64,000 nucleotides of DNA from a virus. How positions within the stretch are numbered: the first letter of the stretch is position 1; every line of letters starts with the position of its first letter. Positions 1,332 through 63,938 of the stretch are shown here, piece by piece. Location: positions 22,349 through 86,348 of the IMG/VR virus record IMGVR_UViG_3300033388_004609; one strand, given 5' to 3'. A program made the position numbers and the translations under genes. The notes beneath the pieces are model-generated. The model searched no databases and was not told where the DNA came from. It was given only the letters and a program-made list of their open reading frames with translations.

Positions 1332-4300
1332 TTAAATTTTTAGTTGTTTTTTTAATTCTCTCATTTTTAACATTTTTGCAAATGGATCTGCTTTCTCCAT
1401 GGCTTTATATTTAAACATATCCATTCTTGCAAAAAAACCTGGTACCTCCAATGCTTTATGTGATTCCTCCGGATCGAAATGCATCATGTCTTCTTTAAGA
1501 AGCATCAACATTCCAAATGCGCTTACTCTGTCAAAATTACCGTCTTTATGCCAATATATAAATTCCTGTAATAATGGAATAGATCGTATTGTATGTAAAT
1601 TCATTAACTCACTACTACTGCTAACTTTAGTCACCAAATGTATTAATGATAATTCTCTCGCCCATTTATTTATTCCCTGTGTACCAGGAGATCCTTTTCC
1701 ACGATTAAGTACTACTTTATCAACTACCTTATCAGCTACTACCTTTGGAGTATCACAAAGCAAGTATGAAGAGAATGTATTATTCATATAAGTCCCCATA
1801 CCCTTGCAATCATTCTCGTAATTACACTTAGCATTATAATATATTAGTAACCTGCGAACATTTTCATAATACATATTCGCTGTCAGTGGCCGACCAGTAT
1901 ATTCTGCAACAATTCTACCTGTCACTTTATTCATGACAAATGTTGAACCAAGTGAATCTGTTGTTGAGTCATCATGGTCATATGTATCGTTACCAGCTAT
2001 ATAAAGTCCATACGGCACTTCTCCATCCTCTCCTGTTACTGGATGCTCATAGATCACTATACACCCTTCTATAAGCTTCTTATCGTTTAAAGGGAATGTT
2101 CTAATCGGTCTTGCCTCAGGATCTAGTTTCCATTCAATCTTTTCAGTCTCCGGGTTAATTACAAGTTTACCAACATACTCTGTGTCTTCGAATTTTTCAG
2201 GGTGAGTTCTTACATACGCAAGATGTTCTTTAAGATCATTAATAGGAAAGATAGTACCACCAATACGCATACATGCTTCCTGTGGTGTCTTGGGTTCTTC
2301 TGCAATGTGTCTTATTATTGCTTCGGGATTCTTTGTTTCATTTCTTACTTTATCCCTATCAGCCTCTATTAGTTTATCTGCAAGTTCTGTATCTGAATTA
2401 CCATCCTTATCCATGGTCCCTTCAAGATTCTTTAATACAGAAGAAAAGAAACCAGACTTCGATCCAGCAGTTGTAGTATCCCATATATTAGGAACCATAT
2501 GAACATTATATCCACCACCTTCATAATAAAGTTGCTCTAACCCCATAAAGTCTTGATTTTCAGTTCCTCCAGTTTGTTTGGTTATAAAATTGTTTGAGAT
2601 ATATGTATTTGTGTAAGCTGTATGAAGATTATAAATATTCTGCATCCCTATATATTCAACCTTTGTAACAGATTCGGTTCTAAAATTAGTCATTCCTTTT
2701 TTGCCAATAAAAAAATGACCTTTATCATTATCAGGATTCAATTCGAAAACACCTTTATTAATTCTGCTTCTATCTATAGAATTAGATTCATGTATCCGTC
2801 TCAAGACTTCCACTTTTTTCTTAGACAAAAGTTTAATATTCTTTTCGAAATTCTTTACATCATTTATATTTGTAATATACAATCTATAAACATATTCTTT
2901 ACCACCACTATATCCGCTAGTTCTCTTCTCTTTGATTATATTACCATGAATGCCAAACTTCGTCAACTGATAATAAACCTCCTTAAGTAAAGGTTTAATA
3001 TTACTCGTCAATACTACTCGAACTGTTTTCTTTTGCTTAGTCCATGTCACATGACCATCTGCATCAAAATAGCCTGCAAGTAAATCAGAAAGTGATTTTT
3101 TATTATATTCGTGAATATTCTTAGGGAGCCTTTTATCATCTTTTACTTGTCCGTATATACCAATATCTTTTAATACATGTGAAAAGTTCTTTATTCCTAC
3201 CGAATCATGCACTCCTCCATTACTCATAAATTTTGATTTGTATATAGAGGTATCATAATTTTTCTTAACATATTTTAATATTGAATCGTCTGCACATGAC
3301 AATTGAGGAGTTGCTCCTTTTGTATAATTTCCATCACCAATTAATAATCCTATTAATCGAGCATCTTTTATATTCTTTTTCCCAAATACAGGAACTTCAT
3401 CAATCTTTAATAATTGATCTCCTGGTTTTATATTTTTTGTTAATGTAAACGAAACTCTTCTTCCTGCCTGAAATTTTCCATCCATATATTTATACCATTG
3501 AGGTCTTGTCCACATTAATGGATGATCTCCTGAACATTCTATATAATTTTCTCCTGAAGTTGTTATTCTATAACATGGCTTTTTTTCAGGAGGTTTAAAC
3601 CATTTTATTTTTTCTTTATAGGACTTATAACCATCGTAACCTATAATTCCATCCTCTTGTTGTAAATCTTCAATATTTATTAGTTTTCCATCTTTCGTCC
3701 ATACTTTAGTTCCTGCACAAACACAGCCGAAGGATGCTTGCAAACCAAAAGTAAGTCTTCCTTGTTGCATACTTTTTAAGGAGATGTTCCATGCTTTTAA
3801 TAAGTTAGGATTTTTTCCGCTCTCTTCATACAGTATTAATTTTCCACGCTTGCCACGTGCTTTGTTCCAATTGTTTTTTAGACTTACTCCTATTATCTCT
3901 GACTTAAATCCTTTCTCTATTTTTAATCCATTCCTCTGAATATAGTAAGAAGCTCTTCTATGCATTACACTATTATGGACCTGTCGTCTTTTTCCCCATG
4001 GAGTATGATTTTCTATATGAGTCATCATATCCCATGCCTTGGTTATTATACCATCTTCAATAAGATAATCTTTATCATCCGCAAAACAATAACTTTTACT
4101 TCCTGGAATAAGATAATAATTACGATTACACATACCGCCACCTTTAAGACTAAATCCTCTCCCCCTGGTTTTGATTACCACTGCATGTTCACCACTCTCT
4201 TCTGCATCATTCAGATAATGAAAATATGTATAATCATTATCCCAAAAATGAGGAAATTGATCCTCCCTATCAGCTTGTGTCTGTTTGGTTAATTCATCAA

Positions 4301-4625
4301 ATCCCCTTTTGTTATCATCTATTTTTTCTCTCTCTACAGCAATAGGTATTGGACAATAATTTAGATAGAAATAAAAATAACCAGGAATCCAATCTCTTCC
4401 AATATCATATCCAAAGACTGATCTCCTGGCTTCTTCTTCCCAGAATTTATAGTACATACTATTGGGGTGAGAATTTACAGGGTAATTAGTGTATCTTCCA
4501 AACTCTTCAAAATGCAGAGCAGAAGCACGCCATTCATCGGTATTATAATGTTTAGTATTCTTATAATAACCTGATGTGATTATATCGCTTTTAGGTTGCA
4601 CCGGTGATAAAATGTCACTGGTCAT
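1332..4625 (-). CDS. terL: Terminase large subunit (crAss-like) with intein
   Basis: Walker A-like IKTRGRGFS, Walker B ILYEESG, FG|TGG motif split by the intein, RNase H-like nuclease AGNDTYDHDDSTTDSLGS...NFDRVSA. Confidence 0.92.
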   Translation of the reverse strand: MTSDILSPVQPKSDIITSGYYKNTKHYNTDEWRASALHFEEFGRYTNYPVNSHPNSMYYKFWEEEARRSVFGYDIGRDWIPGYFYFYLNYCPIPIAVEREKIDDNKRGFDELTKQTQADREDQFPHFWDNDYTYFHYLNDAEESGEHAVVIKTRGRGFSLKGGGMCNRNYYLIPGSKSYCFADDKDYLIEDGIITKAWDMMTHIENHTPWGKRRQVHNSVMHRRASYYIQRNGLKIEKGFKSEIIGVSLKNNWNKARGKRGKLILYEESGKNPNLLKAWNISLKSMQQGRLTFGLQASFGCVCAGTKVWTKDGKLINIEDLQQEDGIIGYDGYKSYKEKIKWFKPPEKKPCYRITTSGENYIECSGDHPLMWTRPQWYKYMDGKFQAGRRVSFTLTKNIKPGDQLLKIDEVPVFGKKNIKDARLIGLLIGDGNYTKGATPQLSCADDSILKYVKKNYDTSIYKSKFMSNGGVHDSVGIKNFSHVLKDIGIYGQVKDDKRLPKNIHEYNKKSLSDLLAGYFDADGHVTWTKQKKTVRVVLTSNIKPLLKEVYYQLTKFGIHGNIIKEKRTSGYSGGKEYVYRLYITNINDVKNFEKNIKLLSKKKVEVLRRIHESNSIDRSRINKGVFELNPDNDKGHFFIGKKGMTNFRTESVTKVEYIGMQNIYNLHTAYTNTYISNNFITKQTGGTENQDFMGLEQLYYEGGGYNVHMVPNIWDTTTAGSKSGFFSSVLKNLEGTMDKDGNSDTELADKLIEADRDKVRNETKNPEAIIRHIAEEPKTPQEACMRIGGTIFPINDLKEHLAYVRTHPEKFEDTEYVGKLVINPETEKIEWKLDPEARPIRTFPLNDKKLIEGCIVIYEHPVTGEDGEVPYGLYIAGNDTYDHDDSTTDSLGSTFVMNKVTGRIVAEYTGRPLTANMYYENVRRLLIYYNAKCNYENDCKGMGTYMNNTFSSYLLCDTPKVVADKVVDKVVLNRGKGSPGTQGINKWARELSLIHLVTKVSSSSELMNLHTIRSIPLLQEFIYWHKDGNFDRVSAFGMLMLLKEDMMHFDPEESHKALEVPGFFARMDMFKYKAMEKADPFAKMLKMRELKKQLKI
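2574..3725 (-). mobile_element. Intein with LAGLIDADG homing endonuclease, 384 aa, Cys1...Lys-Gln/Thr+1
   Basis: Block A CVCAGTKVWT, block B IECSGDHPL, LAGLIDADG motifs LIGLLIGDG and LLAGYFDADG, blocks F/G IYNLHTAYTNTYISNNFITKQ|T. Removing it restores ASFG-TGG. Confidence 0.9.
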
Positions 4626-19774: not shown

Positions 19775-19804
19775 TTGCTTGTATCAAATATTTTATTATA
19801 TTTG
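19775..19804 (+). promoter_or_regulatory. Bacteroidota sigma-A promoter of the leader/tRNA operon
   Basis: TTG (19775-77), 19 nt, TATATTTG (19797-19804). Confidence 0.7.
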
Positions 19805-19811
19805 TACCGAT

Positions 19812-19892
19812 ATGAAAAAGAAACTACATACTCTCGTTTTATTACAGCCCCATTTGCCACGTGGCCATAATAAGGAGAGGTATATGTTTTAA
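19812..19892 (+). CDS. Attenuator leader peptide, 26 aa (MKKKLHTLVLLQPHLPRGHNKERYMF)
   Basis: Read directly from the sequence; 12 of codons 5-19 are Leu/His/Gln/Pro/Arg codons read by the downstream tRNAs. Confidence 0.8.
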   Translation: MKKKLHTLVLLQPHLPRGHNKERYMF

Positions 19893-19919
19893 ACAATATA
19901 AGATATTAATCAATTAATG

Positions 19920-19951
19920 TGCCTCTGAATATTCAGGGGCATTTTTATTTT
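19920..19951 (+). terminator. Attenuator terminator (3:4 hairpin) just before tRNA-Pro
   Basis: TGCCTCTGA-ATAT-TCAGGGGCA followed by TTTTTATTTT. Confidence 0.8.
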
Positions 19952-19952
19952 A

Positions 19953-20025
19953 CGGGAGTCTGGTGTAATCAGGTAGCATACCTGCCTTGGAAGCAGGAGG
20001 CGCAGTTCAAATCTGAGGTTCCCGA
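19953..20025 (+). tRNA. tRNA-Pro(UGG)
   Basis: Anticodon arm CCTGC-CTTGGAA-GCAGG, T-loop TTCAAAT, C1-G72 and A73. Confidence 0.85.
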
Positions 20026-20027
20026 CT

Positions 20028-20101
20028 GTGACTGATCCCGAAGTGGTCGAGGGGCCGGATTGTGATTCCGGTATCAGTGGGTTCGAGTCCCACCAGTCAC
20101 C
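20028..20101 (+). tRNA. tRNA-His(GUG)
   Basis: Acceptor GTGACTG/CAGTCAC, C73, CCGGA-TTGTGAT-TCCGG, GTGGG-TTCGAGT-CCCAC. Confidence 0.88.
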
Positions 20102-20105
20102 CATT

Positions 20106-20177
20106 GGCCTTGTGGTGTAATGAATAGCATGTAACGCTTCGAATGTTATGGTTCTGGTTTGAATCCCGCCAAGGCCT
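20106..20177 (+). tRNA. tRNA-Arg(UCG)
   Basis: Acceptor GGCCTTG/CAAGGCC, TAACG-CTTCGAA-TGTTA; weak T-stem. Confidence 0.78.
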
Positions 20178-20184
20178 CTCTATT

Positions 20185-20258
20185 GTCCCTTTAGCCCAAT
20201 TGGTAGAGGCATCAGGTTTAAGCCCTGTGTAGTCTGGGTTCGAATCCCAGAAGGGACA
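20185..20258 (+). tRNA. tRNA-Leu(UAA), short variable arm
   Basis: Acceptor GTCCCTT/AAGGGAC, A73, loop TTTAAGC, CTGGG-TTCGAAT-CCCAG. Confidence 0.88.
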
Positions 20259-20264
20259 CACAAT

Positions 20265-20338
20265 GCTAAAGTGTGCTAACTGGCAAAGCAGCGATACTTA
20301 GAATATCGTGGATGTGAGTTCGAATCTCACCTTTAGCA
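20265..20338 (+). tRNA. tRNA-Leu(UAG), short variable arm
   Basis: Acceptor GCTAAAG/CTTTAGC, A73, CGATA-CTTAGAA-TATCG. Confidence 0.9.
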
Positions 20339-20344
20339 CAAAAT

Positions 20345-20416
20345 TGTCCTTTAGTATAATGGTCAGTACACAAGGCTTTGATCCTTGAAATCCCGGTTCG
20401 AGTCCGGGAAGGACAT
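20345..20416 (+). tRNA. tRNA-Gln(UUG)
   Basis: Acceptor TGTCCTT/AAGGACA, CAAGG-CTTTGAT-CCTTG, CCCGG-TTCGAGT-CCGGG. Confidence 0.92.
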
Positions 20417-20484
20417 CTATACCTATCTTAAATATAATATATAAACACTATTTTAACAAACTCTCCGAGTGTAAAGTTGTTAAT

Positions 20485-20640
20485 CACCCACTATAAAAAC
20501 ACTCCCCACCCATAAAATTACATTAACGTCTCGGCCAAACAAACACCCACCCACACAAATACCCCCACCCTTTACTGTAACCCCCGTAAACACCCCCACC
20601 CCCTTTACATTATACCCCCCAATACCCCCATACCTCATCC
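20485..20640. repeat. C-tract (minus-strand G-tract) repeat region
   Basis: More than ten C3-C6 runs with recurring ACCCCC/CACCC units in an otherwise very AT-rich genome. Confidence 0.7.
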
Positions 20641-22288: not shown

Positions 22289-22560
22289 AACACACTAAAG
22301 GAGAATGGAAAATTGATAAAGGCATAAGTTATTATTTTGTGAAATCCGGAGAAAACCGTATTGCAATGATTGATAGTTTAGAAGGTTCTGCACTAATAGA
22401 ATATAAAGCAAATGCAAAACTTATTGCTGCTGCTCCTGAATTATTAGAAGCTCTTAAAACAATTAAAGGAGCTTTTTATAGTGATGGGGAATCTTATAAA
22501 GAACAAGTAGATGACTTAAAAGCAATAGCAAATGAAGCAATCAAAAAAGCTACACAATGA
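22285..22560 (+). CDS. Conserved phage hypothetical protein
   Basis: HT.G.W...ANAKLIAAAPELLEAL, a motif common in phages. Confidence 0.7.
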   Translation: MKHTKGEWKIDKGISYYFVKSGENRIAMIDSLEGSALIEYKANAKLIAAAPELLEALKTIKGAFYSDGESYKEQVDDLKAIANEAIKKATQ

Positions 22561-23284
22561 AAATAACAACTAAAAATGAAATAAGGAAGTTTGCTACTAA
22601 ACGTGGTGAAACATCACATTATAGCGGTAAGCTAAGAAAGTTTTTCTTCCGTAAATTCAGTAATCCATCAATGATTAATATTCCATTTAATCAAGTTCGC
22701 CACAAATCACATCTAAGTAAACAACAGCTCACACCAAGACAAGAGCTGGTTCGTAAAAGGAAAGGAAAATGAAATGTATCTTAAATTTATTAAATTTTTA
22801 AAAAGGCATGAAGCTTTTACGGAATTTAAAAAAAGTTGTAAAAAATATCATGGTCCTAGTAAAAAAACCGTGAAAGATATTTGTGATGAACGGTGGCCAA
22901 AATATTACCTTTTCCTTGCTTTCCCTTGGGCCAAGTCTAATAAAGGTTATAGTTTTTGGAGTAATTTAAATGAAAAATGGAAGAAATTATTATGAGAAAA
23001 GCAATGGAATCTTGCGTATTAGCAGTTAATAAGTACCTAGAAGATAAAGTAGTGAAAATGACTGAGAGTGAACTCCTATCTAATATGCATCCCGAAGAAA
23101 GAGAATCATTTAATAATAGAATATATATTAATTCATTCAAAAAAACAGAAAGGATAAACCAATGAAAACAAAAAGCATTTACAAATGGATCTTTTTATTA
23201 TATACAACATTTTTCTTAATAGCAACAGCTATAAGTATAGTTTTGCAAATAATAAAATAATACTTTATCTTTAGCAAGGTAAAT

Positions 23285-23586
23285 GGGGCTGACAGGTTTT
23301 GATTTATTGTAGTAAGTAATTAATGCAAGCAGTGGTAAAACCCGGGAATCACTTTAAACAACTCGGGGAATAAACAAAAGGCAATACCATAAGTACGCCT
23401 GTTGCAAATGAGCTTAAGTTAGCTGCATAGCAACCGGGAATGTTAAGATGCCTGGGAACAAAAAGAATTAACAGCTTTTTTGTTTTATTTTTTTCATAAT
23501 TTTAGTTTAGGTGAATACTCATAAAGCTTGTAAACATTAGTTAAATACACAATGAAAACAAAAGGGTTCGATTCCCTTCGGCTCCA
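23285..23586 (+). ncRNA. ssrA: tmRNA; tag peptide (A)GNTISTPVANELKLAA* at 23380-23430
   Basis: 5' GGGGCTGA...GGTTTTGA and 3' GGGTTCGATTCCC-TTCGGCTCCA with G3-U70; pk1 (AGTGGT/ATCACT, CCCGGG/CTCGGG); tag ends LAA-stop. Confidence 0.92.
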
Positions 23587-23629
23587 CTACATAAATTACC
23601 ATTTAAATAATCACTTTATTAATTTTATA

Positions 23630-23660
23630 AGAGAGTAGCAGTTCTGTTACTCTCTTTTTT
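23630..23660 (+). terminator. Intrinsic terminator after tmRNA
   Basis: AGAGAGTAGCAG-TT-CTGTTACTCTCT followed by a T tract. Confidence 0.75.
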
Positions 23661-30303: not shown

Positions 30304-31576
30304 TGAAACATAAAGATAAACTATTGTTTATTGATTGGTTAAATAAATATTTCACATTTGCTGGTAATGATGATTTATACAAACGAAAGGATAATGGGAA
30401 AGTAGAGCCGCAGCGGAAATTATACAAGGATTATTTAAGAGCCTATAAATTATGATGGGGCATAAAGAAAAATTAAAGGGAGGTATGTAATACGATGTAA
30501 TATTTGCACGTAAAATTTACTGTTATTTGTTTAATAATAGCAAATTGAAAAGATTTGCGAAAAATGCAATTAATCGGCGAAATAGGAAGAAATCAAAATT
30601 AAAATTAAATCATGAAAAAGAAAATGATTACAGGGTATAGTTTTTATCAAGAACCCGATGAGTACGTAATAAAGATTTTTGAATCAGCATCCATAGGTTA
30701 TTATCATGTAATTATAGATTCCGCATTTCAGAATAATGAGTATTTTCACTTAACTAAAGAGGAAATAGAAAACAGATTCGGAGGGATTAAATTATGAAAA
30801 ATGTAATTAAAAAGTGGGAACTCATTTTAGATAAGGATAAAGGGAAAGATATAACTTATGGAAGGAAAGTACTAAAAGAAATACTTAATGACTTCAAAAA
30901 TGAAAACAGAACTAGGGAAAATAGTAATCGGAATCGATCAAAAGATTTACTTTGAGTATTATAAATTGAAAAAACCAATCTTTGAAGCTCATCAAAAAGA
31001 TGTTGCTTATTTTCAAAAAAATGTAGAAAGATATAAAGCTCCAAATATGATGCTTGAAATGGATAGATACAAAGCCTCAAAACAACAAATTGAGGTTAGT
31101 AATTTCTGGCGGGAATTTCCAAGTGGTATTCGTATGATAATCAAAAAAGGGATGGTTCATATTAAAGATAATCAGAGATGCAAAGCAGAAGTAAACGGAA
31201 CAGCAAAAATTATTGAATTAATAAAGTAAAGCTATGAAAGAATGGATTATGGATAGTCAGCAAGAAGAGGAGATAAGGGAGGAAATAGAGTATTTAGAAG
31301 AAAAAAGATATTCTTATGGATGGACGAGGGGAGATGCGGAGCGTTATCATTCTCTAAAAAAGAAATTAGGTGAAGACGAATAATTGAATTAACTAAAGAA
31401 TAAATATATGAGCAAGAAACGAAAATGGATAGATGTGGCAAAAGAACAACCGCCAAAAGGTGCTGTAATTCTTGGTAAAATATTATCAGGTTCTAAGATA
31501 ATTAAAGTTGAGGTTACAGGTAATATTTGGGATTATGGAATTAGCAAATGGAAATATTTTGATAACTAACTAAACA

Positions 31577-45792: not shown

Positions 45793-48700
45793 TTATCTCC
45801 ACTTATGTTGAAATTCAAGTAACCAATCAGGATTTACACTTTTAGCATTTGTAACTTTATTATGAAAATCATAGTAAGAAGCTAACCCGGGAATACTTTT
45901 CTTAAATTCATTCCATCCTCTTAAATCTCCCTTTTGTGTAAAAGCTCCTTCTTTGTTTCCTACGGCTATATCAGCTAAAGCAATATTTAGTTTAGTAAAT
46001 GCTGTTACCGCCTTATAACCTCTAGCTAATGAGACTGGTCGTGATGCAGATTCCAAAGTACGTAAAAGGTCTACCGGATTATATTGTTGAGTTAAATTAT
46101 CAACAAGGTACATCTTCCACCATTTTTTTAGTGTATCATCATCATCTTCGTCTCCAAACAATTTAAGATATGCTCCATAGAATATTGCTATTTGTCCTAT
46201 AACAATAAAAGCATCTATAATATTTTGTTTTTGTTCAGCATCTAATACACTCCATCGATAATTTCTCTTTGCTTTATTAAACGAAATAATAGTTAAAGCA
46301 GCATTAATAAACGTTTTCCATCTACCTTCATTTAATCTAGCAGTTCTTTCATAAACAGTTTCTCCTTCGTGTTTTTCATCAAGTTCTTTCCAATAACCAA
46401 GATCATATTCTAGTCTTTTCGAATGATAGGTATTTATAAGCAACCTGGGTAAATATTTCTTAAATTGAATAAAAGCTCTACCTATTGCATATATCTCGAT
46501 ATTAGCTGCCTCCTCTTTCCTGTAACCACCTTGCATTCTCTCATGAACTTTCTTCATCTTAGCTATCTCTTCTGATGTAAGTTCATTAATAGGTCTGTAA
46601 ATAGCTGATTTACCGGTACCGATCTTTTTTACCGGTACCGATCTTTTGGTATCCTCTTGGTGGTGCAACCCATTTGAGTTCATGCACCCCTGTCTCTTTA
46701 TTAAATACTATATCATAACAATCCCATAAACTTTTACCTGTTTTTGGATGCTTTAAATAATGCATCTGAGCTACCATCGTAGTAAGAGACACATACTCTT
46801 CCGGTTTTGCGTGGAAAACATACATTGAAGATTTTGACATAGATTTATTCCTTGTTGAAAGCATGAATTTTCTGTTTGTCCATACATTAGGTAAAAACTC
46901 ACTAAAATATACCTTATCTGCAAACACATTATCAGCTATTTTAAAATCTATTGCATCTCCGTCAATATTAAGAAAGCTCGAAGCTATAGAACCTTTTAGG
47001 GCCTCTCTATAGGTAAGACTCCTAGCATGTAATCCATTACCACCACCTTGCATAGGCCTTAACCACATTATAGTAGAACTTGACCAATCAGTCATAAGGT
47101 CTATCACATTATCTACTTGTACAGCCTTTCCCATTATTCTTATTGGGTTACGAGAAGTTTTCATTCTCATTTTTCTATTAAGAATATCACTTATAAGTTT
47201 TTTCTCAAGAAAGTCTGCGGTATTTTCATACATAGGTTGCCCTTCTCCATCTTTCTGCATTCGCAACCAATGTTCTAAAGCTTTTCCTTGATGCATACAC
47301 GGAATCCATGTATTTCTTATAAGTCATTTCTCTGACAAACGAATCATAACTATATTCTAAATTGTCTGTATACTCCTCTGCTGAATCAATTTTCAAGCTA
47401 CCTAAATGATTAACCGGTAATGCTTCTACTTCTTCATTGCTATTTGCAGACCATCCCTGATAAGTATCTTCAATATATCTTGTTAGTTTTCTTTTAGATA
47501 CTTCTTTCATGTATTCAGGAGTTAAAGCACCGACAATATTTGATCCTTTACCTAAATCATAACGAATCTCTTCCATTGTTTTAATAGCCTTTGGAAACCA
47601 TCCTTCATAATATTCGAAAGCTTCATTTTTTGCTCTATTCTGATTAATCAATTCCATAAATGTAACACCTCTTTCTTCTCCGGATATAGGATCCGTTTTA
47701 TATCTGGCAATCTGATTCATAAAAGCATCAGAACCCACAAACCATGACTTAAATTCTGCGTTAATAAAATCAAGGTATTTCTTTTGTGCTTCACTCAACT
47801 GTTTATACTCATCATCAGTAGAGATAACAAGTCTTTTTATATTACGGCCTTCTTGGGTAAAATATGTATAAAAAGGAGCATATAACTCTTTGTAGTTTAT
47901 ATCCGAAACGCCCAATGCTCTTACAGTAAATTTTTTCTTTTTATACTCTTCAACTATTGGTTCAAGCAAAGCCTTCATTTTTAAATCTTTACTTAATGCT
48001 TCATTTCTTACCTGATGTCTTCTCCTATCACGATACTTTTTCCATATTTGCACAAAGGGATTAGGTACATCTGAATAATTGCCAATCCATACCATTACCT
48101 TAGATATATCATAACCTTTCTCCGGAATAAGTTCCATTGAAGGATCAGCACTCATTACTTGTATTTCTTTGGTAAGTTTCATTAAGCGTTTTTTATCAAT
48201 CCTTGAGAGATCCTCAAACCTTTGTTCTTTCCCTTTAATTAATGTCATCTCTGCATACTTACTAGAAAGTAATTGCTCATTGGTAAGTTCACTACTCATA
48301 CATTCTTCTTCTATTGAATCCGTTGTCATATTAGTATATTCAGATACCCAAAAAGCTTTTGGTGATTTTTTAATTATCTGTTCATATATATCTTCAGATA
48401 ATCCTGCTTGCTTTAATGCCTTTTTATCCTTTAAGAACGATTCAACCATTGGGAGATAACTATTAACAGCAACTGCCCTATCCATGTCATTATAATCAAT
48501 CTTATATTTGTTAGGAATCCATGTAAGAGATAATTCTCTAAATTGAATATTTGGATTTTCAATCTTTAGCATAAGAGCATAAAGCATAACCTGTAACTTG
48601 GCTCTGTTTCTTTGATTATCTGTTATTTCTATTTCCTGATTACCATATTTAAGAAGATTAACAAATGGTGTCATATCAAATCTTGAACCGGTTTTAAAGT

Positions 48701-51700
48701 CTGTGATAGAAAACTTACCATCTGAATGTTGTGTTAAAAGGTCTATTGAACCACCAAATCCTAATATCTCTGATATTACCTTAACCTCTGATAATAACTT
48801 ATCTTTTAACTCATCAGGTACACCTTCCGAAAAAGTGTTAATTCTTGCTTTCTTCATTATTTTTAAAAAATTCTCATCTACCCAATTCCAATCATTTACA
48901 TTTATCCCTACCCTAGAAGCAATATCACGTATGTCAAGATCTATCTGTTCAATATTCCTACCTGAGTTAAATACCTTATCTATGTAACGCTGTATTTTCT
49001 TATGTATAATTTTTCCTTTGGTCTTACCTATCTCCATATTAAGGTCCATACGATCTCTATATTCATCGTAATTCTCTAAATCTCCTTCGTCTGTTGTTTG
49101 CTTGATATCATGATCTATATTTTCCCATATCATATCCGCTTTTCTCTCACCAAAGGTCTTCTCTGTATCAATCTTTCTCTCCACAAATTGATTAATAAAT
49201 CCTTTTACCCTATCAGTTATCCTCTCAAATTTCTTCCCAAGAAATGTATAAAAATCTACTTCCTCTCCATTTTCATCAACCTCCAAAATAATCTCATTAG
49301 ATTTATTTTTTATATCATCAAATAACTTATCTCTTTTTTCTTCGTCTGTCAGTTCTTTCTCCTCTACCTCTGTCTCAACCTCTGCTTTTAATGTACGGAA
49401 CTCTTCTTTTAGATATGATTCTCTCATTTGTTTAAAGAATGGATTTTCTTTAGCAAGATCCTCTATCTCATTCTCTCCTGCATATATCTTAAGATCATAA
49501 CCGGTAATAAACTTCTCTACCACATCAAGCAATGATTTTTGTTTAACGAATATTGATTTTAGAGCATCCCATATTTTCCTTAAAATATTTTTCTCTTCAT
49601 AAGGTATAGTACTTAAGAATTCTCTAAATTCAGGATGTTTAAGTACATCTGCTAAAAATTCATATTGTGATTTTAGTCCATAAAAATCTTTACCTTCTTT
49701 CTCTGCTCTCTCTTTAGCTATCCTAAACATATCATCAATCTTCTCTTTAAAAGCCGGATTACTCATATATGTTGTCGTTGTTACAGCATGAAACAATTCA
49801 TGAGCAATAGCCATATCAAATCTAAATAGATTGTCTACCTCACTTGCACCATTAACCTTAGTAAGATCAATCCTAACAGTACCGGTCATAGGATCAAATT
49901 CTGCAAATGCTTCCCCTTCTATCTTACTAAACACTACTTCTAATTTACTTTCATATTTTCTTAATACAGGCAATATAGCATCAATAAACTTCCTAATATG
50001 CGGTAAACCTACCCTATCTCTTATCTCAAGTGCTTTATCAACAACAGATGTCGAGGTGGAATAATTCTCTTTTAAATATTCAATTTTACCCTGTTGTTCC
50101 AGTTCATATTCCTTTCTCATCTCATCACTAGAAATATTTTCTATCTTCTCTAAGTGATTGGTAGATGAAAATAAGGTCTGTTGCTTGCCATAGAGCCAAT
50201 CTAAGAGCACTTCTTTGTTTATGACTACTTCCCATCCATAACTTGTAGTAATCTGTTTAAGGACCTTTAAGTTGCCGAATTCTTTCCTATTAATATTATT
50301 CTTAAATGCCATCCCTTCACCTTCTCTACCATTTATCATTACCACCTTACCCTTTTTAGGTGCATAGAAAGGAGAACCTCTTTTTAATAATCTCGTTTTT
50401 AATGTATTAGTGTATTTCTCAACTGTACTTTCAGCTTTTAATGTACGAGAAATATCCTTTACTGTCATGTAGTTCTTATCTATCTTATCTACAACAACAA
50501 TTCTTTTATCGATTCTTGCAGGATCATGGTAATTAGTTAAGGAAATAACGTTACCCTTACTCACTTTAAACCCACGATAAAATATTCTATTATTTTTATT
50601 GTTTGCTGTTTGAACATTTCTCATACCGGGATCAAAAGCTTCACTTATATCATATCCATTCTCTATAATATCCCTGTTAAGATTATAAAAGGTTACTCTA
50701 TTTTTATTACCGGCTTTTTGATAATATATTATTTCACTATTAGCCGGGGATACTCTCACATATAATTCTTCTTGTCCATAATATCCTCTATTACGAATAA
50801 CCAAAGGATATTCTTTACCTTCTGAATTATCATACTTTCTATCAAACACAATACCATCCTCGGTACCATAATAGATATTTACTTCTACACCATCAATTTT
50901 TGTTTTACCAGTAGGCATAAGATTTTCATCAAAGGAATTTTTAATAGATAACTGATCAGTATAATTGATTGCTGTCTCAATAGTAAAATGATCCAATAAT
51001 CCATCTAATTGTTTTCTATTACCTGGAGCAACAAGCTCTGACAGCTTCTCCGTAAATTGCTTATCAATCTTTTTATAAAGATCAACAGGCAGGACAAGTG
51101 AATAATTAGTTGTTCCAAATTTCAATCCAAACTGTAATATTCCATACGATACGAACTCTCTTTGAAAATCGCTATACTCATTATCAGCTAACTTCTCATC
51201 AATCAGTATACCAATATAACTAGAAGTACTTTTACTCCAAACAAATCTTAATCTATTGAGTTCCATAAAAGATTTTTGAAAGCTCAACAAATCCGTTGCA
51301 TCAAGGTTAGTACCACCAGAAAATCTTAGGAACCAAGTTTTATTTATAGGATCAAATCTTGCTTCAATATTACGTAAGAACAAGTTTTTTGGCAATAACC
51401 TTCTCGCCTTATCAATCTTCTGTATCAGATGTTGACTGAATGCCTTTGGTCCGGTAAGCTGCCTATCCTGCCCCTCGCTATCCTTATACTTCCATGGTGG
51501 TACATCATCAAATGATTCAAATCCACTCATAAGATAACGTACAAACTCTTCTCTTTTTAACTCATTGTTTTTTCCTTCATTTCTATTATCCAGTTTTATA
51601 TTTACACCATTCTTTAACTTCATATTATCTATAAACTCATATAAAGCCGGAGAATGTTTCAAGAGATTATCACGAAGAGTGTTCCTTAAGAATTTTAACG

Positions 51701-54700
51701 TCCTGTAAGCTGCAAATATATGCGGATTGGATTTGAAGTAATTACTTATATCATGCGAGAATTTCGTATCCACTTTTGCCTCTTCGGTTGTGGTACCATC
51801 ATCATTTAATTCCTTACCGAATACCCTATCTGCAAACTCCATCTGTTCATCCATTGCAGCTACACCATCTGGCATATTATTTATAAGGTTGGTGAAAAAT
51901 GAAAGTTTTGTCATGTCAGTACTTAATGCCATTGCCTTACTCCATACATTCTCAAGTACTGATAATTGATTAACGAAGAACTCTCTATCTGCCTTGGTAA
52001 TCTTATCCGGATGGTTATTAATTAGATCACGCATATCTTTTCGCCACTTCATCCCCTTCTCTAACATCTCATCATTCACCTCAATTAATTCCAATTGGTT
52101 AACCTCTTCTACACCTAATCCTTTTAATAATAATTTCTTTGTTGCTGAATAACCATTGAATTTTTCTTTACTAAGGAATTTTATTGCAGGTTGTACCATT
52201 ATATTATTTAAGGTTTTTATATTAACCCCATGTCCTTTAAGTACAATAAATTCATTAATAGTATTTTTATTAATATTAAGCCTTGGAAGGATCATCAACT
52301 TAACATTATCCACTGCGGAGTTAAGAAACCCATCAAGGATCTCCCATGTTGTTAATTCCTTATTCTCCTTACCATCCTTATCCAATTCGTAATCCCGTAT
52401 CTGGTCATGCTCCACTCCATTAATTACTATTCTTATTGTCTTATCTTTTTTTGAACTCTCATCATAATCCTTTACAATCTTAGGACTTGTCTGTCCTTCA
52501 CCTGCACGCATCATGTAAGCTAACATCTTTATACCATTAGCAAATATTCCTATTGATTCACTACCTCTAAATACTGCATCATGTGCAGCCATGTTATCTA
52601 AAGGATTAGAAAGGTCAAGATATAATCCCTCTTTCTCAAGTTCTTTTTTAGTTAGTTTTCTAATCTTATTTAGCCTATTAATATCTTCTTCAATAAATTT
52701 TGTATTGATAGAGGTTAACATTCTTTCTCTATTCCTCTCGGCAGAGAATGCTTCAAGAAATGCCTCCACAACAACGTTCTTATGATAACCGATTAAGGTT
52801 TTGTTATCCCAATCCTTTGCTGGCTGATCAGCTAATACTAACTTACCGTCTTTATTCTTTGAATACCCAATAGGATCACCTTTATCATTAAGAACCCGGG
52901 AAATAACAAACAACTCATCTACATCAAAGTCTGAACCATGTAAAGGAACAAGTTCTTTAGGAGCAACAACCACGTTAGTATCTAGTGTATCATAAAACCC
53001 AACTACCCTTAATGGTACTGCACTGTGCATCTCAGAGGAAGGCAAACGAAAGCCGAAAGCATCATTATAAAGAAATATCCCTGTTTCTTCTTTACCTTGT
53101 TTCCATAAACTATCTATTCTATCTTCATAACTTTTAGATAACATTCCCCTGGTGACTAATACTTCTGCATAAAGATTACCATTCTCATCTTCTTTATATT
53201 GTAATTCTTCTCCATTTGGTTTTTTAATACCCAATGAAGTCTGCAATACATGCACACGACCCGGGAACCTCATACGAACAGTATCCTTTGTTAAGGCAGA
53301 GGATAGGTGTACAGCCACGCTACTGGCAATTGCAGGGAAGTCAACACTTAACCCTTCGGATAACATCTCATGCTTTCTCTCCTGACCAGGAGTATTAAAC
53401 AAGGACATCATCTTACTTTTTAATCCTTTTACAGATAATTCTTTTTCAAATTTATCCAGTCCATCTTCTATAATCCATGTTAATGACTTGTATGCTTTTG
53501 CTGCTGACTCAACATTTGTCCCTAAGATATTAAGGAAATATATCAACTGTGAAGGATTAGCTATCTCATCTGTGATAGAAGATTTAGGGTTCTGGCTTAT
53601 CCGAAAATTCTCATTTGATAATTCCATGACAGAGTTCTCATCATACTTAAACTCCTCACCAGTCTTACTTGTAATATCACCCCACCCAACAGTAACAGAA
53701 GGATTACCAACCTTAACAGCACTATCAAGCACTGCCTCACCAATCCCTTCATCTCTCATGTTCTGTCTTAAATTCCTTAATTCCGGATGATCAGCCACCA
53801 GATCATCACTAAGCACAATAACAGAATACTTCACACCTCTTGTAATCCCTTTACTACAAGTACCAAAATAAACTGGTTTTAAAACATTTATAAGATCATA
53901 AGCATTATCAAACCCTCTATTTATCTCATCAAATCTCTCTGGCGTAATAAACCCCTGTCCATCACCAGGCATATAGTCACCAAATTTTTGTAATACTTTT
54001 GATACATCCTTTCTCTTAAGCAATCTTTGTAAGAATCCCTCAAGATTTTCTTTTTTCTCAACAGGATCTTTTATTACAATTGACTTGTAGGTTTTTCGCA
54101 TCCCGAAATCTTCATTGATAAACCCTTTCATTCCGGGAGCAAATACTAATGCCATCCTCTTAAGTAAATCATTACCATTCTTATACTGTGCAAAATCACC
54201 TGCTACCAGTTGGTTAAGGTTATATGAATTAACATAGTTGTTTGACACGTAGGCATGAATCATCGGTAATAGATCCTCACGAGATAAAACATACTTACCG
54301 TCTTCACGTACCCGTAATCCACCTTCATGCTTCTTGTTCATCTCTTTCATGTCCCAGGTAGAGAAAGTATCGCTATCAATAAATTTATTTAGATTAGTTA
54401 TTTTAAACAGATCTTGATCAAGATTAACACTCTCTGCTATAATAGCATCTGTAACCTCTGTTGAAAGGTTAAGTAATTCAGTATACATTCTCCTCGTTAA
54501 CCCGGAAATTTCTTTCTCTGTCAATGGTTTCTTTCGTAAATCCCTACCATCCAGCACATCTTCTAAAATAGAAAGGTTAATAAGCTTATCAGTTTTAAAA
54601 TTTGCAAGTGTTGTTTCAAAACTTTCATCCCTGTTCATTATCTGTCTTAGCATATCACCAAGTGCAGCTTTCACTTGTTCAGGTTTCAATACCCCTACCT

Positions 54701-57700
54701 CTGCACCTATAATATTGGGTCGTTCAGCAATAGTATAGAAGTACTGGGTGTATTTCTCATTACCTTTTCTCGATGTTTTAAGATGTGCTAAGAATCCATA
54801 TACGAAATTCCTTGCAAGGAAATCTTTATTCAATTCTTTTTTATAAGGAGTAATATACTCTACACCTCTCCAGTCTGTATCCCTCATCCCATCGTGATCC
54901 ACTAAACTATAAATATGATTTAATCCACGAACAAATATATTATTCTTAAAGAATTTTGTTTTTAAATGTTCCGGTAAACTAAGAGTAGAAAATTTTCCTA
55001 CACCGCGATAATCACTTGTTGATTTCCTATTAATAAGATTGAAAAGGATATCATGTGCCTGTGATGCCTGGCTCCATACATACTTGTTTTTCCCTTCTGC
55101 ATCTCTTATTGATGTTGCTCTTATAAATTCATTGTTATGATTAATTAACTCTGCGAGATTACGCACAAGCGATACTCCATCATTCTCCAATGCTTTCTCA
55201 AACGAATCTGAATCTGTTACTAACTGTGTATGTGTCTGAACAAATTCAATAATATCATCTCTTACGGTATTAATATTATTCTCCGGTAAATAAACTGCAA
55301 GGTACCCAAGGTCTATTGATGCGAGGAATGCTCTTACAAATTCTACCGGTTCATCTTTATACTTCTCTATAAGTGTCGGTATCTCTACATCACGTACATT
55401 ATTCCATGTATTGAGGTTTTTAAATTTCTCTCTCAGGGCATTCCTTACTGTTGCAGCTATTGATGAGTTGGGCCCAAGTGCTTTCCCTACGATGTATGCT
55501 ATCTTGTATAATCCATTATCCATCTTACTCCTACCTACCTTAACATGCTTCTCTTTTTGTGATGCGAAATTGTTCATCAACCCACGGATAGTATTGCCGG
55601 ACATTTCTTTTTGTAATAATATTCCAAGCACATCATCACTTATATCAACCTTACGGGATATATTACCAATATAATCAACTGTGCTTTGATTAGTTCCTCT
55701 CTTAATAATTGCTATTCCCTTTTGTTTAGCTTCGTTTATTCCTATTACATCCTCTACTCCATCTTCACTATAGATAAATGTATCTTCATTAATAAACTTA
55801 CCGGTAGTTGGTAATAATTGTCCCTTAAGCTTTCCTTCCTTAACTTGTTTTGTTGCAGCAAGTTCCCACTCATCTATAAAGTAATCCAGTACTGCTCTTG
55901 TACGCTCATGACTACCGTTCTTTTTCCATGCCTGTCCTAACTGTTCAAAGAATCTTTCATTACCTGGCTGTAATCCTTCTACAAGTTGAAGCATACGAAT
56001 ATAGCTCTCTCTCCAATTCAGAAACTTCTTACCTAGTTTAATACCCGATAAGAAATCTTTTATGCTCTCGGTAACTTTCGCTTCACGATCAACTTGGTCA
56101 TTTTCTACTGTATGCTTACCAATTACTCCATCTCCAAGCTGTTTCCAGTTTTCAAATATCTCTCCATCAGACAGTTTTTCCGTAGGATTAATTATCCCAC
56201 GTGTCTTAAAGCTCCTGTTAGGATAAATATCTTTTACAAGTCGATCAAAGTTCACATACTTACCGTCTTTATTTGTTAATAGCATAGTATTAAATAATCC
56301 CTTATACTCAATCCACCTTGCTACATCCTTAAACAACTCATCATCTTCTTCTGATGCTTCTTTATTATCCTGAATACGATTATATAACTCAGTCATATCT
56401 TTATTAAGATCATCAAGCACCATATGATAAAGCTCCTTACGAGTCAAAGGTAAGCCCATATAGCCACTTTTAATACGCTTGTGGTACTTACTCTCGACTA
56501 TTGCTCTTGCGTTGATGTATGACTCTAATGTACCCCATACCTTGACTATATTTTTAAGTGCTCTGGTAATATCCACATAAGGAATTAACAAATCATTATA
56601 AAATCCTCTCTCGATCCTATTAAAATATGTATCAAGTGACGAACTATTATCACTTAAGAAATTAAAGTATCTTAATATCTTATTAAATATTTTTCTTATA
56701 AAAGAAGACTTAACAACTTTCTCATTACTTCTCCACTCCTGAAATTTAAGAGCTATCTCTTCCTCAATCTCCACCTGTGTCATTAATTTTGTCTGCGGAT
56801 ACTCTTTATTGAAACTCTCCATAAACAATCTCTGTTCACCGGTAGTAAGATACTGGTTGAATATCTTATGGAATACTTCGTGGCGTACAATATTTTCATG
56901 TACTGTACCATCTTCATTTTTAAGTATATAAAGCACACCGTTCTTAAATAATCCCCAAACATTATCTCCATGCAAAACATCCAATGTCATCTGATCAACA
57001 AATTGTATCATATCTTTATCCATTCCCGGGACAAGTCTTTTAGCCAATGCCTGTGCCTGTGCAATAGATATCCTCTTTCCTAGTCCTGCCGTTGCATCTT
57101 TCTTTAAGGTCCTTGCATTTATATCATCGTCAAGTTCATCTGATATGTTTTTCTTTTTCTTAGTTATTTTTTCAACTACTTTTTTAGCAGCTTTCTTAAT
57201 CTCGGCAACTTTACCCTCATCAAGCTTTACTTGTATTCTTGTAGGATTAACCTTCTCGAATGATGTAGCAAGTTTACTCTCAAGTTCCGAATTGTCTTTA
57301 GAAAGGTCTATATTTTCTCCAAGCTTATTAATATCTTCATAATCAAGAGGCAACCATAGTTCTTCATGCTCATCTGTTTCTTTATTAAATGTTAATAACT
57401 GATCAAGTGTTTCAGATGTAATAGTAGGGATAGTATATTGTTTTCTCTTCTCATTCAATTCTTCCTGTGTAGCAAATCCCATCTCTATAAGTGCACTCTC
57501 TGCTTCAACAATATTATTAGCATTAACAATGGTAAATTTCGTTCTTATATTCGCTGGTAAGTTGTTGCGTAATATTCTTATAAGCTCTTTATAATACTGT
57601 CCATATGTATCTTCACCAGCAAGTAATGATTTACCATAAGTTATCTTAACACCCTTACTGGAGAATGAAACTCTAAAACGTGTATCTCCTGTCTTTGGAT

Positions 57701-60700
57701 TAGCAGTTGCCAATAGATTAATTGTACTCTGAGCCAACCCCTCACCTGCCTTAAGAGCATCTTGGTAAATATATCTTCCTTTATCTTTTAAGTCAGTTGG
57801 ATCTGCCTCTTTCACAAATCCGGTATTCTCATTAGTTTTACTTTGTTCAAAGATGAATTTATTATCACTGGTATCTATATAAGAATTATTTCCTTTCTTA
57901 TCCTTGTACTTACGCATCTCTTCTTCACTTGCAAAAGATACTCTCTCTTTCCCATATCCATAAAACAATCTTATTACAGGATCAATGTTCTTATTCAGTT
58001 GATTAAACTGGTCTTCTGTTATATCGGGTAAGAATTGTTTATTCTTTTCATCTTTTTGGTATGCTTCATAGGTCCATTGTGGAATTTCTTTTGCAACTAT
58101 CTCCTTACCATCCAGCTCATAATTATTACTAAATCTTTTTATAAGAGAATTAAATGATGCTTGTCCAAGTTTCCCTATACCTATCTCTTCAAGTACCTTT
58201 ATAGCATCTCTGAATTGCATCAGCTCCTGTATTCCTCTATCACCTTTCATTAACCTTCTTGGGTTAAGTCTTATATATTGTGTGGCTACAGGTTTCCCTT
58301 CTCCTTGTCTTTTCCATGCAGTAGTTCTTATGATAAGATAAGGTACACCTGCATAGAAATGTGTTTCAGCTATTTTCTCTCCTTCGAATAATTCAGTATT
58401 CTTAAATATCTTAACTGATATCTCTGTAGTTGTTTTGCCTCTGCGATGAAAACCCAGGTTAAATTTATCCATTAACCGGTTTAGGATACCTACTCCTTTA
58501 TCAGTAGTTTTTTCAGAATACTTATATGTTAAAGGATGACTAGCTTGTAAATATCCTTCAAGTAGTATTGATGGATGATTTTCTTTAAAAAGTAATTGTC
58601 CACGCCTGTTAAGCCCATTATATACTGTCTTATCACTCTTGCTTTTACTTATAATTTTATCATGAAGGTCTCTTAGTGTCTTGGATTTTTCAAGGTCTTC
58701 CATCCCAACTACACCTATCAGGTGCCAGTTCTCTCCTGCTACCGGTTGTCCGTTGTTATTTAATTCTTCTGCTACAATATGTATCTCTGGGCGTTTAGCT
58801 TTTTCGTTATAAACCATTATGTATTTTACTATCTGTACTTGTGGTCCACCATGTACTCCTTTTTTATGATAATTTATATTACCGTAAGAAGGAAATTCAA
58901 CTTCATGTACTCCTTTCACATCTACCGAAGGAGCTTCTATAATCTCTCCTGATTCAATTTTAATAGTGGTTGCTGAATGTGCCTCACCCTGTCCTGATTC
59001 ATCTTCTACCTGTGGTGTTTCATTGCCTTCAATATCACTATCGGTTATATCCCTCATCTGGCTTGTAGTAGGCTTAGACTTGTTTATAATTTCTTTGCCT
59101 AATATTTGTGCTTCAAATGCCAATCTTTCTGAATACTCGTTATTAGCCTGTTTAATATCTTCTTTTGCTTTATCCTTATCATATTCCTCACTTTCCAGTA
59201 TCTCATTTTTAAATGTATTTGTATGATCAAATATAAAAATATATTGTTTTGCTCTCGACAAAGCAGTATACATTGCTGTATTATACTTATAAGCTCCCTC
59301 TCCCCCCTCTCTAATATCCACATACACTTCATCCCACTCAATCCCTACTGCATCAATAACGGTTTCTACATCTGCAAATTCTTGCATATCATCATACTTT
59401 GCTTTACCTTTTTCGTCTGCTACGATAATTACTTTTGTACGATTATTTTTTGAATGTACCTTTACTTGATTCTTTAACTCTTCTGTAGTAGTTCCTACAT
59501 GCACCCCAGTTGCTGATTTACCCAATGGTGCATTTGCCCTGGCAACAATCCCTCTTACGCTACGTGTGTTGTCCTGAAACTTATTCTGCACATCAAGCAC
59601 TGACGATACATTACTACGATACACAATAGTTAATGGTTGAAGTTCATGTATGTTAATCTGTCCCCTCTCGGAAGCATTTATATCTGGTTCTGTAGTAAAA
59701 GATTTATTTATTTGCGTGGGATCACCAAGCACAATTACCTTAACCGGATCTCCTTTACGTAATTTATTTATTTCATTTATTGTTTCTCCAAGAGTATTTA
59801 ATTGTTTTGAATCTAATGCTCCTATCTCATCAATAACAATCACCTTTATCTCATCACCGATCTTCTCTGGACTTAACTCATTTGTAAGTATCCCTTCTTT
59901 CTCCGGATTAAGTGAATCGTGTATTGTTTTTATCTGTTTATTACCGTGCGAAACAACTACAAACTCATTTGCTTTAAGTCCGAAACTATTAATCATCCAC
60001 TTAGCAACAATAGTAGTCTTTCCTGTACCAGCCAGTCCTTTCATGTAAGCCCATTCCTGAAACTTCTTAAGCCCTTTGCCAAGTTTTAGGTTAAACCATT
60101 TTACTCCTTGCCGTATAGCATTTACTTGCTGGTTTGAAGGAGCTTTATCTTCTGACTTTTGTAATTCAATTTCTGTCATTACCTGATCACCTATTCTTGC
60201 ATCTGATTCAAGTGTGGTAACAGCATTTATTAAGTTCTCAATTTTCAATTGCAGGTCCAGAATACTCAAGAGCTCATCTTTTGTAATCCCATTATGTCCT
60301 GTATCGGGTTCGTTCTCAAGACTTGTTTTTAACTGTAATACATCCTTATTGTTTTTATATACATCAAGAGCAACTTTGTTTGTTGCCGTCTTTAATCCCT
60401 TTGCACGATTTACCAATGCTTCAAATTGCTTAACAGGATTCTGACCGTAAAATTCTAATTGATTTTGAATAGTCCCTGTTTTAAGTAACATCTTGAGAGT
60501 AGGAAATCCAAGAAACAATTTCTTAAACTCATCAACCATTCCTGATATTTTATTCTCTATAACATCAATAACCTTATCACTCCTACCGGTATCTTTTACC
60601 TTATCGAGTATCTTATCTGCAAATATCTTATAGAATTTTGCATCTCTCTCACCCATCTTAGCCTTGCTTGCTTCTTCTATAATAGCATCGAACTCTTTAT

Positions 60701-63700: not shown

Positions 63701-63938
63701 TCTCATAAGGCATTGCCTGTCCGGTAAGGAATTTTCCTGATTCTTCGGTCGCCATCCTTGTATGTTCTCCAAAAAGGGAAGGATCTGACAAATCAAACAA
63801 AGCATTACCTCTTGCTGATTTAACAAACCCTTGTTCGCTTGGTCTTATAGGAAGATTGTTCTCGTCTAGTTGCTGAACATTAAGGAGACCTGCGTCATAA
63901 AGATGATAACGCGATCCTTTTCTTTTACCATTTGCCAT
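45793..63938 (-). CDS. Giant virion RNA polymerase polyprotein (~6,040 aa once two frame breaks at ~47290 and 46611-46648 are repaired)
   Basis: RNAP motifs PGDGQGF and HGSDFDVD (52917-52931); SF1 helicase motifs GLAGTGKTT, VIDEIG, LGDPTQ, YRS, YTALSRA; HEVFH and HELFH zincins; GSIDLL...ITDFKTG...Q..LYA nuclease. The track ORFs 47226..63938, 46610..47296 and 45793..46683 form one reading unit. Confidence 0.85.

Follow-up and report, generated by a model that had tools for sequence, protein, structure and literature searches.

A phage tRNA array that covers the C-starting codons with A37 tRNAs behind a predicted attenuator

What would a phage gain from carrying one transfer RNA (tRNA) for every class of codon that begins with C, each with an adenosine at position 37, next to the anticodon? 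The question is raised by six tRNA genes at positions 19953-20417 (+) of a 64,000-nucleotide (nt) stretch of viral DNA (positions 22,349 to 86,348 of IMG/VR virus record IMGVR_UViG_3300033388_004609), which we analyzed as a whole and refer to as the window. In bacteria, the 1-methylguanosine that TrmD makes at position 37 (m1G37) is essential and has attracted interest as a target for antibiotics. The tRNAs for proline and for the CUN codons of leucine are treated as having G37 near-universally. Within the array, position 37 is A in all five tRNAs that have G36, and it is G in the sole tRNA that has A36, which is tRNA-Leu(UAA). ARAGORN and the Rfam family RF00005 agree on all six genes:

19953-20026 (+), tRNA-Pro(UGG): loop CU-UGG-AA, A37 at 19991, C1:G72 and A73; 47.1 bits
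20028-20102 (+), tRNA-His(GUG): loop UU-GUG-AU, A37 at 20065, C73 and no encoded G-1; 35.9 bits
20106-20178 (+), tRNA-Arg(UCG): loop CU-UCG-AA, A37 at 20142; 45.9 bits
20185-20259 (+), tRNA-Leu(UAA): loop UU-UAA-GC, G37 at 20222 after A36, short variable loop, A73; 58.1 bits
20265-20339 (+), tRNA-Leu(UAG): loop CU-UAG-AA, A37 at 20302, short variable loop, A73; 60.2 bits
20345-20417 (+), tRNA-Gln(UUG): loop CU-UUG-AU, A37 at 20381; 66 bits

ARAGORN folds all six, and their RF00005 scores (35.9-66 bits) lie above the gathering score of 29, which places each of them in the tRNA family. The anticodon loops given in a preliminary description of this DNA, including A37 in the five decoders of C-starting (CNN) codons and G37 in tRNA-Leu(UAA), match these calls exactly. 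Each of the five C-starting decoding classes is represented by one array tRNA, to which the array adds a decoder of the UUR codons of leucine. If six of the 23 sense decoding classes were drawn uniformly, all five CNN classes would be included with a chance of 18/100,947 (~2e-4). With anticodons that begin with U34 or G34, the six predicted tRNAs would suffice to decode UUR-Leu and every CNN codon, which together specify Leu, Pro, His, Gln and Arg. ARAGORN found no tRNA beyond these six in the whole 86,348-base record, which has a G+C content (GC) of 32.5%, and its search for transfer-messenger RNA returned none anywhere in the record, window positions 23242-23660 included.

TrmD methylates G37 only when it follows G36, and both bases are needed (PMC5372744). 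The five CNN decoders are G36-A37 and tRNA-Leu(UAA) is A36-G37, so none of the six should be a TrmD substrate, because G36-G37 occurs in none of them. The TrmD independence that had been predicted for the five CNN decoders thus follows from the chemistry of the enzyme as applied to the array sequence. A second modification enzyme, MiaA, acts on A36-A37-A38 in tRNAs that read UNN codons, and tRNA-Leu(UAA), the only array tRNA with A36, has G37 and C38 and lacks that motif.

To whom these loops should be compared depends on the phage and its hosts. The large terminase of the window shares 36-38% identity with its counterparts in Dulem virus 42 and crAss-like phage cr53_1. Among classified records, the nearest belong to the family Suoliviridae of the Crassvirales, and positions 47226-63938 are occupied by a 5,570-residue open reading frame (ORF) of the type found in crAss-like phages. 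The phage is therefore probably crAss-like (Suoliviridae-like), and by this kinship its hosts are probably Bacteroidota. A helicase query found no close relatives among viral contigs, the five nearest Suoliviridae-like records carry 1-3 tRNAs each and the array in none, and BLAST of the array against reference phages returned only short tRNA-Leu similarities, to actinophages. A look-up of sequencing runs found none of RNA for this DNA and a single DNA run, with which it has 0.05 of its words in common.

We tabulated position 37 in genomes of the class Bacteroidia around Maribacter with search patterns that ran from the anticodon loop into the T arm and displayed the bases matched. G37 was present in tRNA-His of 29 of the 30 genomes and in every tRNA-Pro(UGG). 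It was found in tRNA-Gln(UUG) of about 27 genomes, with A37 in 3-4, and it outnumbered A37 by 10 to 1 in tRNA-Arg(ACG) and by 12 to 1 in tRNA-Leu(UAG); tRNA-Arg(UCG) and tRNA-Arg(CCG) had mainly G37. For all five types of CNN decoder, about 90% or more of the Bacteroidia genes thus have G37. The preliminary description had proposed that its interpretation would fail if host tRNAs also had A37, and this outcome was not seen. The phage thus departs from its probable hosts in all five CNN classes, and in those hosts the whole class is G36-G37.

The same holds for proline in cells more broadly. We scanned viral contigs and cellular genomes for tRNA-Pro(UGG) with one pattern that left base 37 free as A or G. 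Among the matches listed, 110 cellular matches had G and 12 had A, and ARAGORN called tRNA-Pro(UGG) in 87 with G37 and in only 3 with A37; the remaining nine cellular matches with A were not tRNAs. All three cellular A37 genes, among the matches listed, lie in phage-type multi-tRNA arrays, namely in a metagenome-assembled genome (MAG) of Chryseobacterium (L195), in a Thiodiazotropha MAG (L260) and in Cohnella soli (L282), and these arrays are likely to be prophages or phage contigs that were binned with the genome. One such array holds 13 tRNAs, a short tRNA-Leu(UAG) among them. A further 35 small genomes of roughly 1 Mb and uncertain identity, sampled by the order of a MAG labelled Muribaculaceae and counted as cellular evidence only, have G37 in tRNA-Pro in 35 of 35 cases. 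The cellular samples and the Bacteroidia together bear out the earlier statement that G37 is near-universal in tRNA-Pro and tRNA-Leu(NAG) and is often used in tRNAs for His, Gln and Arg as well.

Viruses differ. Among the matches listed, viral tRNA-Pro(UGG) had A37 in 79 genes and G37 in 40, and viral tRNA(UAG) had A37 in 34 and G37 in 23; within the sample selected for tRNA(UAG), tRNA-Pro(UGG) had A37 in 9 and G37 in 26 of the matches listed. The two samples differ in the gene by which they were selected, and the viral A37 share for proline therefore lies somewhere from a quarter to two thirds. There is much diversity among the A37 genes, as 101 of those listed fall into 73 clusters at 85% identity, and their loci range in GC from 0.26 to 0.65 with the same median as the G37 loci. 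This equality rules out AT bias, by which we had considered explaining A37. The five CNN classes occur together in 24 viral arrays among the matches listed, of which 10 have A37 throughout the five, and small CNN-dominated A37 arrays occur also in four other viral contigs (L047, L044, L026 and L079). The opposite exchange is found where bacteria use A37: viral tRNA-Phe(GAA) has G37 in 26 of 36 genes in the proline sample and in 13 of 25 in the UAG sample, among the matches listed, and several viral tRNA-Leu(UAA), including that of the array, have G37. Phage T5 has A37 in tRNA-Leu(UAG) and G37 in its tRNAs for Phe and Pro, and T4 has G37 in tRNA-Pro. Taken together, these counts indicate that A37 in tRNAs for Pro and Leu(CUN) is widespread among phages, whose tRNAs it marks, and hardly occurs in cells; for a phage its presence here is typical. 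Thus A37 in all five CNN decoders is very unusual by host base rates but not by phage base rates.

One alternative view is that A37 does nothing, and that short-lived helper tRNAs acquired it by drift or from a shared phage pool under relaxed constraint. Viral tRNAs for Pro and Leu(UAG) do occur with either A37 or G37, as this view would expect, and the array breaks other tRNA rules, since its leucine tRNAs are short, its tRNA-His has no encoded G-1 and its tRNA-Arg has a D loop without GG. Position 37 is not randomized, however, as it remains a purine in nearly all tallied viral tRNAs for Pro, Leu(UAG), His, Gln and Arg (one tRNA-His has C). Furthermore, A37 does not track the GC of the locus, and all five classes are switched together in two unrelated phages of Bacteroidota hosts that use G37, the present one and phi19:1, a phage of Cellulophaga baltica. 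We consider it very unlikely that the A37 set is without function in this sense.

The irregular tRNAs bear on whether the array could be used. Both leucine tRNAs are only 74-75 nt long, with a variable loop of 4-5 nt and a class I shape, and thus lack the long variable arm and total length of about 85 nt that mark bacterial class II tRNA-Leu. The short form accounts for 41 of 57 viral tRNA(UAG) genes among the matches listed, and the Leu(UAG) genes found in Bacteroidia had a long variable arm, with a search pattern that admitted long arms only. Both array tRNAs nevertheless have the A73 discriminator of class II tRNA-Leu and lack G3:U70. LeuRS uses the discriminator A73 and does not read the anticodon, and the presence of A73 together with the lack of other identity marks suggests that LeuRS could charge the short tRNAs. 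In tRNA-His, C73 is present and the base before G1 is T rather than the encoded G-1 of bacterial tRNA-His, which is present in the Bacteroidia hosts, in phi19:1 and in one of the two tRNA-His genes of contig L079; position 8 is A rather than U, and the Rfam score is the lowest of the six. The tRNA-Arg has, in addition to its D loop, a T loop of UUUGAAU and U at position 56. Directly downstream of the array, the otherwise AT-rich intergenic region holds a C-rich tract (20470-20640, +) in which the words CCCAC and CCCCC are frequent.

The sequence upstream of the array suggests how its expression might be controlled. Between a promoter-like motif and tRNA-Pro, the following features are present or predicted:

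19797-19804 (+), promoter-like TATATTTG, which fits the Bacteroidota -7 consensus TAnnTTTG and lies 8 nt upstream of the leader ATG
19812-19892 (+), leader ORF of 26 codons, read from the sequence as MKKKLHTLVLLQPHLPRGHNKERYMF
19828-19883 (+), hairpin of region 1 with region 2, in which 19828-19844, inside the regulatory codons, pairs with 19868-19883 in the minimum free energy fold
19876-19926 (+), predicted antiterminator, in which region 2 (19876-19885) pairs with the terminator 5' arm (19917-19926) in constrained folds
19919-19952 (+), intrinsic terminator with a 10-bp stem, a 4-nt loop and a U-run, which ends one base before tRNA-Pro

In the leader, 12 of the 15 codons from codon 5 to codon 19 are read by array tRNAs, and all six tRNA specificities are represented. 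This cognate density is the maximum for the whole genome, which 16 of the 73,695 stop-free windows attain; besides the leader, about ten other places show it. The leader region folds with a z-score of -3.84 relative to 200 shuffles. We modeled the effect of a translating ribosome by folding the transcript up to the terminator 5' arm with the ribosome-covered bases masked. In these folds, region 1 pairs with region 2 when no ribosome is present. When the A site is on codons 3-17, and only then, region 2 pairs with the terminator 5' arm to form the antiterminator, and when the ribosome is further along, region 2 is covered and the terminator arm is free. The locus thus combines, in silico, a short ORF enriched in cognate codons with mutually exclusive pairings that depend on the position of a stall and with a terminator that precedes the genes, which is consistent with the logic of a classical attenuator that has tRNA genes as its regulated genes. 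The CNN codons of the leader peptide, to which the preliminary description had pointed, therefore sit within attenuator geometry in the modeled folds. Starvation for amino acids would not be relieved by more tRNA, and a switch of this kind is sensible only where the supply of tRNA itself fails.

Constrained folding yields a stall-selected antiterminator likewise in phi19:1 and in viral contig L079. In L079, a leader containing ...PQPQQHPQ... (L079:1066-1220, -) precedes a Pro-His-Pro-His cluster, and a Gln gene lies about 450 nt further downstream; the corresponding region of phi19:1 is at about 30900-31056 of NC_021799 (L512:1348-1500). Three unrelated sequences, those of L079, phi19:1 and window positions 19812-19952, therefore have one design that consists of a cognate leader, a 1:2 hairpin, a stall-selected antiterminator and a terminator that abuts the first tRNA. 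The same class of -7 motif is present upstream of the leaders in L079 and phi19:1. The full bipartite promoter motif of Bacteroidota shows no enrichment in the window (7 found, 3.9 expected), so the -7 match serves as a consistency point only. L484:5746-5890 (-) is a fourth candidate, in which the leader MKTLSLHSLCLRSLRLSLDVSRP precedes tRNAs for Cys, His, Leu, Leu and Arg that have G37. Contig L091, which we had also considered as a leader-attenuated array, has a cognate-rich ORF but no terminator and was set aside.

A switch of this kind could also serve ordinary demand, in that an AT-rich phage tops up the tRNAs for codons ending in A or U, the attenuator matches supply to demand and A37 is incidental. 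Five of the six anticodons begin with U, and the phage uses several of the codons concerned more often than the Bacteroidia sample does, with UUA at 32.7 versus 18.7, CCA at 10.0 versus 6.3 and CAU at 15.4 versus 10.6 per 1000 codons. However, CGA (2.9 per 1000) and CUA (5.2 per 1000) are rare in the phage, and the CNN class as a whole is less frequent there than in the sample (124 versus 183 per 1000). The most over-used phage codons, AGA, AUA and ACA, have no phage tRNA at all, and demand does not account for the occurrence of precisely the five CNN classes in two unrelated phages. The comparison is with a mixture of 30 Bacteroidia genomes that comprises only 13.7k codons. Codon usage explains the composition of the array poorly, and we regard supply with feedback as an unlikely account of it. 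The composition of the array is also less typical than A37 itself.

What, then, would call for tRNAs of this class? In E. coli, loss of m1G37 leads to ribosome stalling in the A site at the codons of m1G37-bearing tRNAs (PMC8384417). We propose that the array is a self-regulated, TrmD-independent back-up set that replaces G36-G37 tRNAs, and we would give this proposal an even chance of being correct. The six tRNAs would work straight after transcription with no need for m1G37, and they would differ from the host G36-G37 tRNAs at the very base that defines the class. If a ribosome stalled at a leader codon for Leu, His, Gln, Pro or Arg, region 2 would be free to pair with the terminator 5' arm, which would allow read-through into the tRNA genes, and smooth translation of the leader would let the terminator form. 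Expression of the array would then rise when decoding of these codons falters and fall once the phage tRNAs restore it. We infer charging and use of the tRNAs, a working attenuator and, as the reason for selection, that m1G37-type tRNAs of the host run short or are defective in infected cells. Host CNN decoding might falter through a nuclease that recognizes the G36-G37 loop, through hypomodification or loss of host tRNAs, or simply through supply and demand.

The first of these causes can be spelled out as a rival account, in which an anticodon nuclease of the host or of a competing element recognizes G36-G37 or m1G37 loops and cuts the CNN decoders class-wide, A37 takes away what it recognizes and the stall that follows is sensed by the attenuator. 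An earlier proposal holds that phage tRNAs resist VapC, PrrC and colicins when their anticodon loops are altered where these nucleases are known to cut (van den Berg et al. 2023, PMC10264068), and viral tRNAs are reported to neutralize the PARIS and Retron-Eco7 defenses (PMC11464382, PMC11555353). The class-wide set, the convergent array of phi19:1 and the misfit with codon usage also speak for a loss of host tRNAs that is specific to this class. Against a nuclease, the array includes tRNA-Leu(UAA) although its host counterpart has A37, and L484 keeps G37. A nuclease that targets the whole G36-G37 class was not found in the literature searched, and no search of the window or of host genomes was made. 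We therefore think it improbable that a single class-wide nuclease is the explanation.

In the more general form given by the preliminary description, in which the array escapes a defense or stress aimed at G36-G37 tRNAs, the idea is plausible as a putative function. It gains from the contrast with host tRNAs, from the chemistry of TrmD, from the leader and from the misfit with codon usage; it loses from the generality of A37 in phages and from the G37 tRNAs of L484. A bolder extension holds that Bacteroidota lose the whole class of m1G37 tRNAs in infection, by defense or by failure, that unrelated phages have convergently answered with attenuator-switched A37 sets, and that swapping the purine at position 37 is a general strategy by which phage tRNAs escape dependence on, or recognition by, host systems that act there. 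We offer this extension tentatively and believe it to be unlikely as a whole.

Several points weigh against the back-up set that we propose. A37 is a general trait of phage tRNAs over many lineages and no special device of this phage, and it is common also in phages whose hosts use A37 (in His, Gln and Arg), such that part of it may be inherited from a phage tRNA pool. G37 is kept in L484, which has a similar leader and terminator, in one tRNA-Pro of L079 and in tRNA-Pro of T4 and T5, which indicates that phage tRNAs and attenuated arrays can do without A37. The upstream ORFs of small viral arrays in general are no richer in cognate residues than the control. G37 contributes to charging by ProRS in E. 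coli, and A37 may cost efficiency; likewise, tRNA-His, with no G-1 and a weak score, may be a poor substrate for HisRS. Finally, the probable hosts are assigned solely by kinship with the Crassvirales.

Elsewhere in the window, the large terminase gene (1332-4625, -) encodes 1,097 residues. The match to terminases falls into separate parts, the best of which covers residues 685-1056, and residues 344-528 give a primase-like match. In Dulem virus 42, a LAGLIDADG-like gene lies in the region homologous to the split terminase, which suggests that an intein or inserted homing element is possible in the terminase of the window.

The locus is of interest chiefly for its class-wide logic and for a convergent design coupled to a predicted attenuator, more than for A37 by itself. 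Phages constitute a large natural collection of A37 tRNAs for Pro and Leu(CUN), with which it becomes testable what m1G37 is truly needed for, whether A37 tRNAs can bypass loss of TrmD, and whether G36-G37 tRNAs are attacked by hosts or disabled by infection. The coupling to a predicted attenuator suggests a new regulatory circuit, in which tRNA genes are switched on by stalling at their own codons, and C. baltica with phi19:1 offers a cultured, bench-workable system with the same module.

Phage tRNA arrays are already known, as is the idea that their loops diverge from host loops to escape nucleases. As in the work on anticodon-loop changes (PMC10264068) and on T5 against PARIS and Retron-Eco7, the array has phage tRNAs that differ from those of the host in the anticodon loop and would substitute for them. 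That work, in the parts consulted, concerns specific nucleases and single tRNAs, and mentions no class-wide switch from G37 to A37, no position 37 and no TrmD; the supplements of PMC10264068 contain nothing on Pro, Leu or Gln. In a literature coverage that was incomplete, we found no paper on a G37-to-A37 switch in phage tRNAs for Pro and Leu(CUN), on CNN-only arrays or on leader-attenuated phage tRNA operons. Cells offer a precedent in tRNAs with G36-A37, which read CNN codons and need no m1G37, as predicted for the array. In E. coli, trmD deficiency led to the evolution of tRNA-Arg genes with A37 and a recoded CCG anticodon, 'unaffected by m1G37 deficiency' (Clifton et al. 2021, PMC8643618). 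Cells keep G37 in Pro and Leu(CUN), whereas the array has A37 in both. The tRNA clusters of T4 and T5 are in tandem, as here, and A37 in Leu(UAG) and G37 in Phe of T5 are the same purine swap relative to E. coli; these clusters differ from the array in that Pro keeps G37 and the sets are not restricted to CNN codons.

The leader has its closest counterparts in the attenuators of amino-acid operons (trp, his, leu and pheST), which likewise have a codon-enriched short ORF, 1:2, 2:3 and 3:4 hairpins and an intrinsic terminator. Unlike those, the predicted element of the array would regulate tRNA genes rather than biosynthetic or synthetase genes, would sample five amino acids at once and is carried by a phage. 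The whole module is matched by phi19:1, a cultured siphovirus of the Assiduviridae with a flavobacterial host. The published record annotates its tRNA genes, and we found no account of their CNN, A37 or leader logic. The only tRNAs of phi19:1 (NC_021799, 31057-31495) are five CNN decoders, Pro(UGG), Gln(UUG), His(GUG), a short Leu(UAG) and Arg(ACG), all of which have A37 as do the five of the window, and they follow a leader rich in cognate residues (...HIQRLPQP...), an intrinsic terminator and a predicted stall-dependent antiterminator. Unlike the window, phi19:1 has another gene order, Arg(ACG) in place of Arg(UCG), no Leu(UAA) and a tRNA-His with encoded G-1. The tRNA sequences of the two sets have no recognizable homology, as pairs with the same anticodon score 0.51-0.64 and are no closer than mismatched pairs. 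Based on the different gene order and this lack of same-anticodon similarity, the two arrays look independent, which suggests that phages of Bacteroidota arrived at the same combination of CNN decoders, A37 and leader by convergence.

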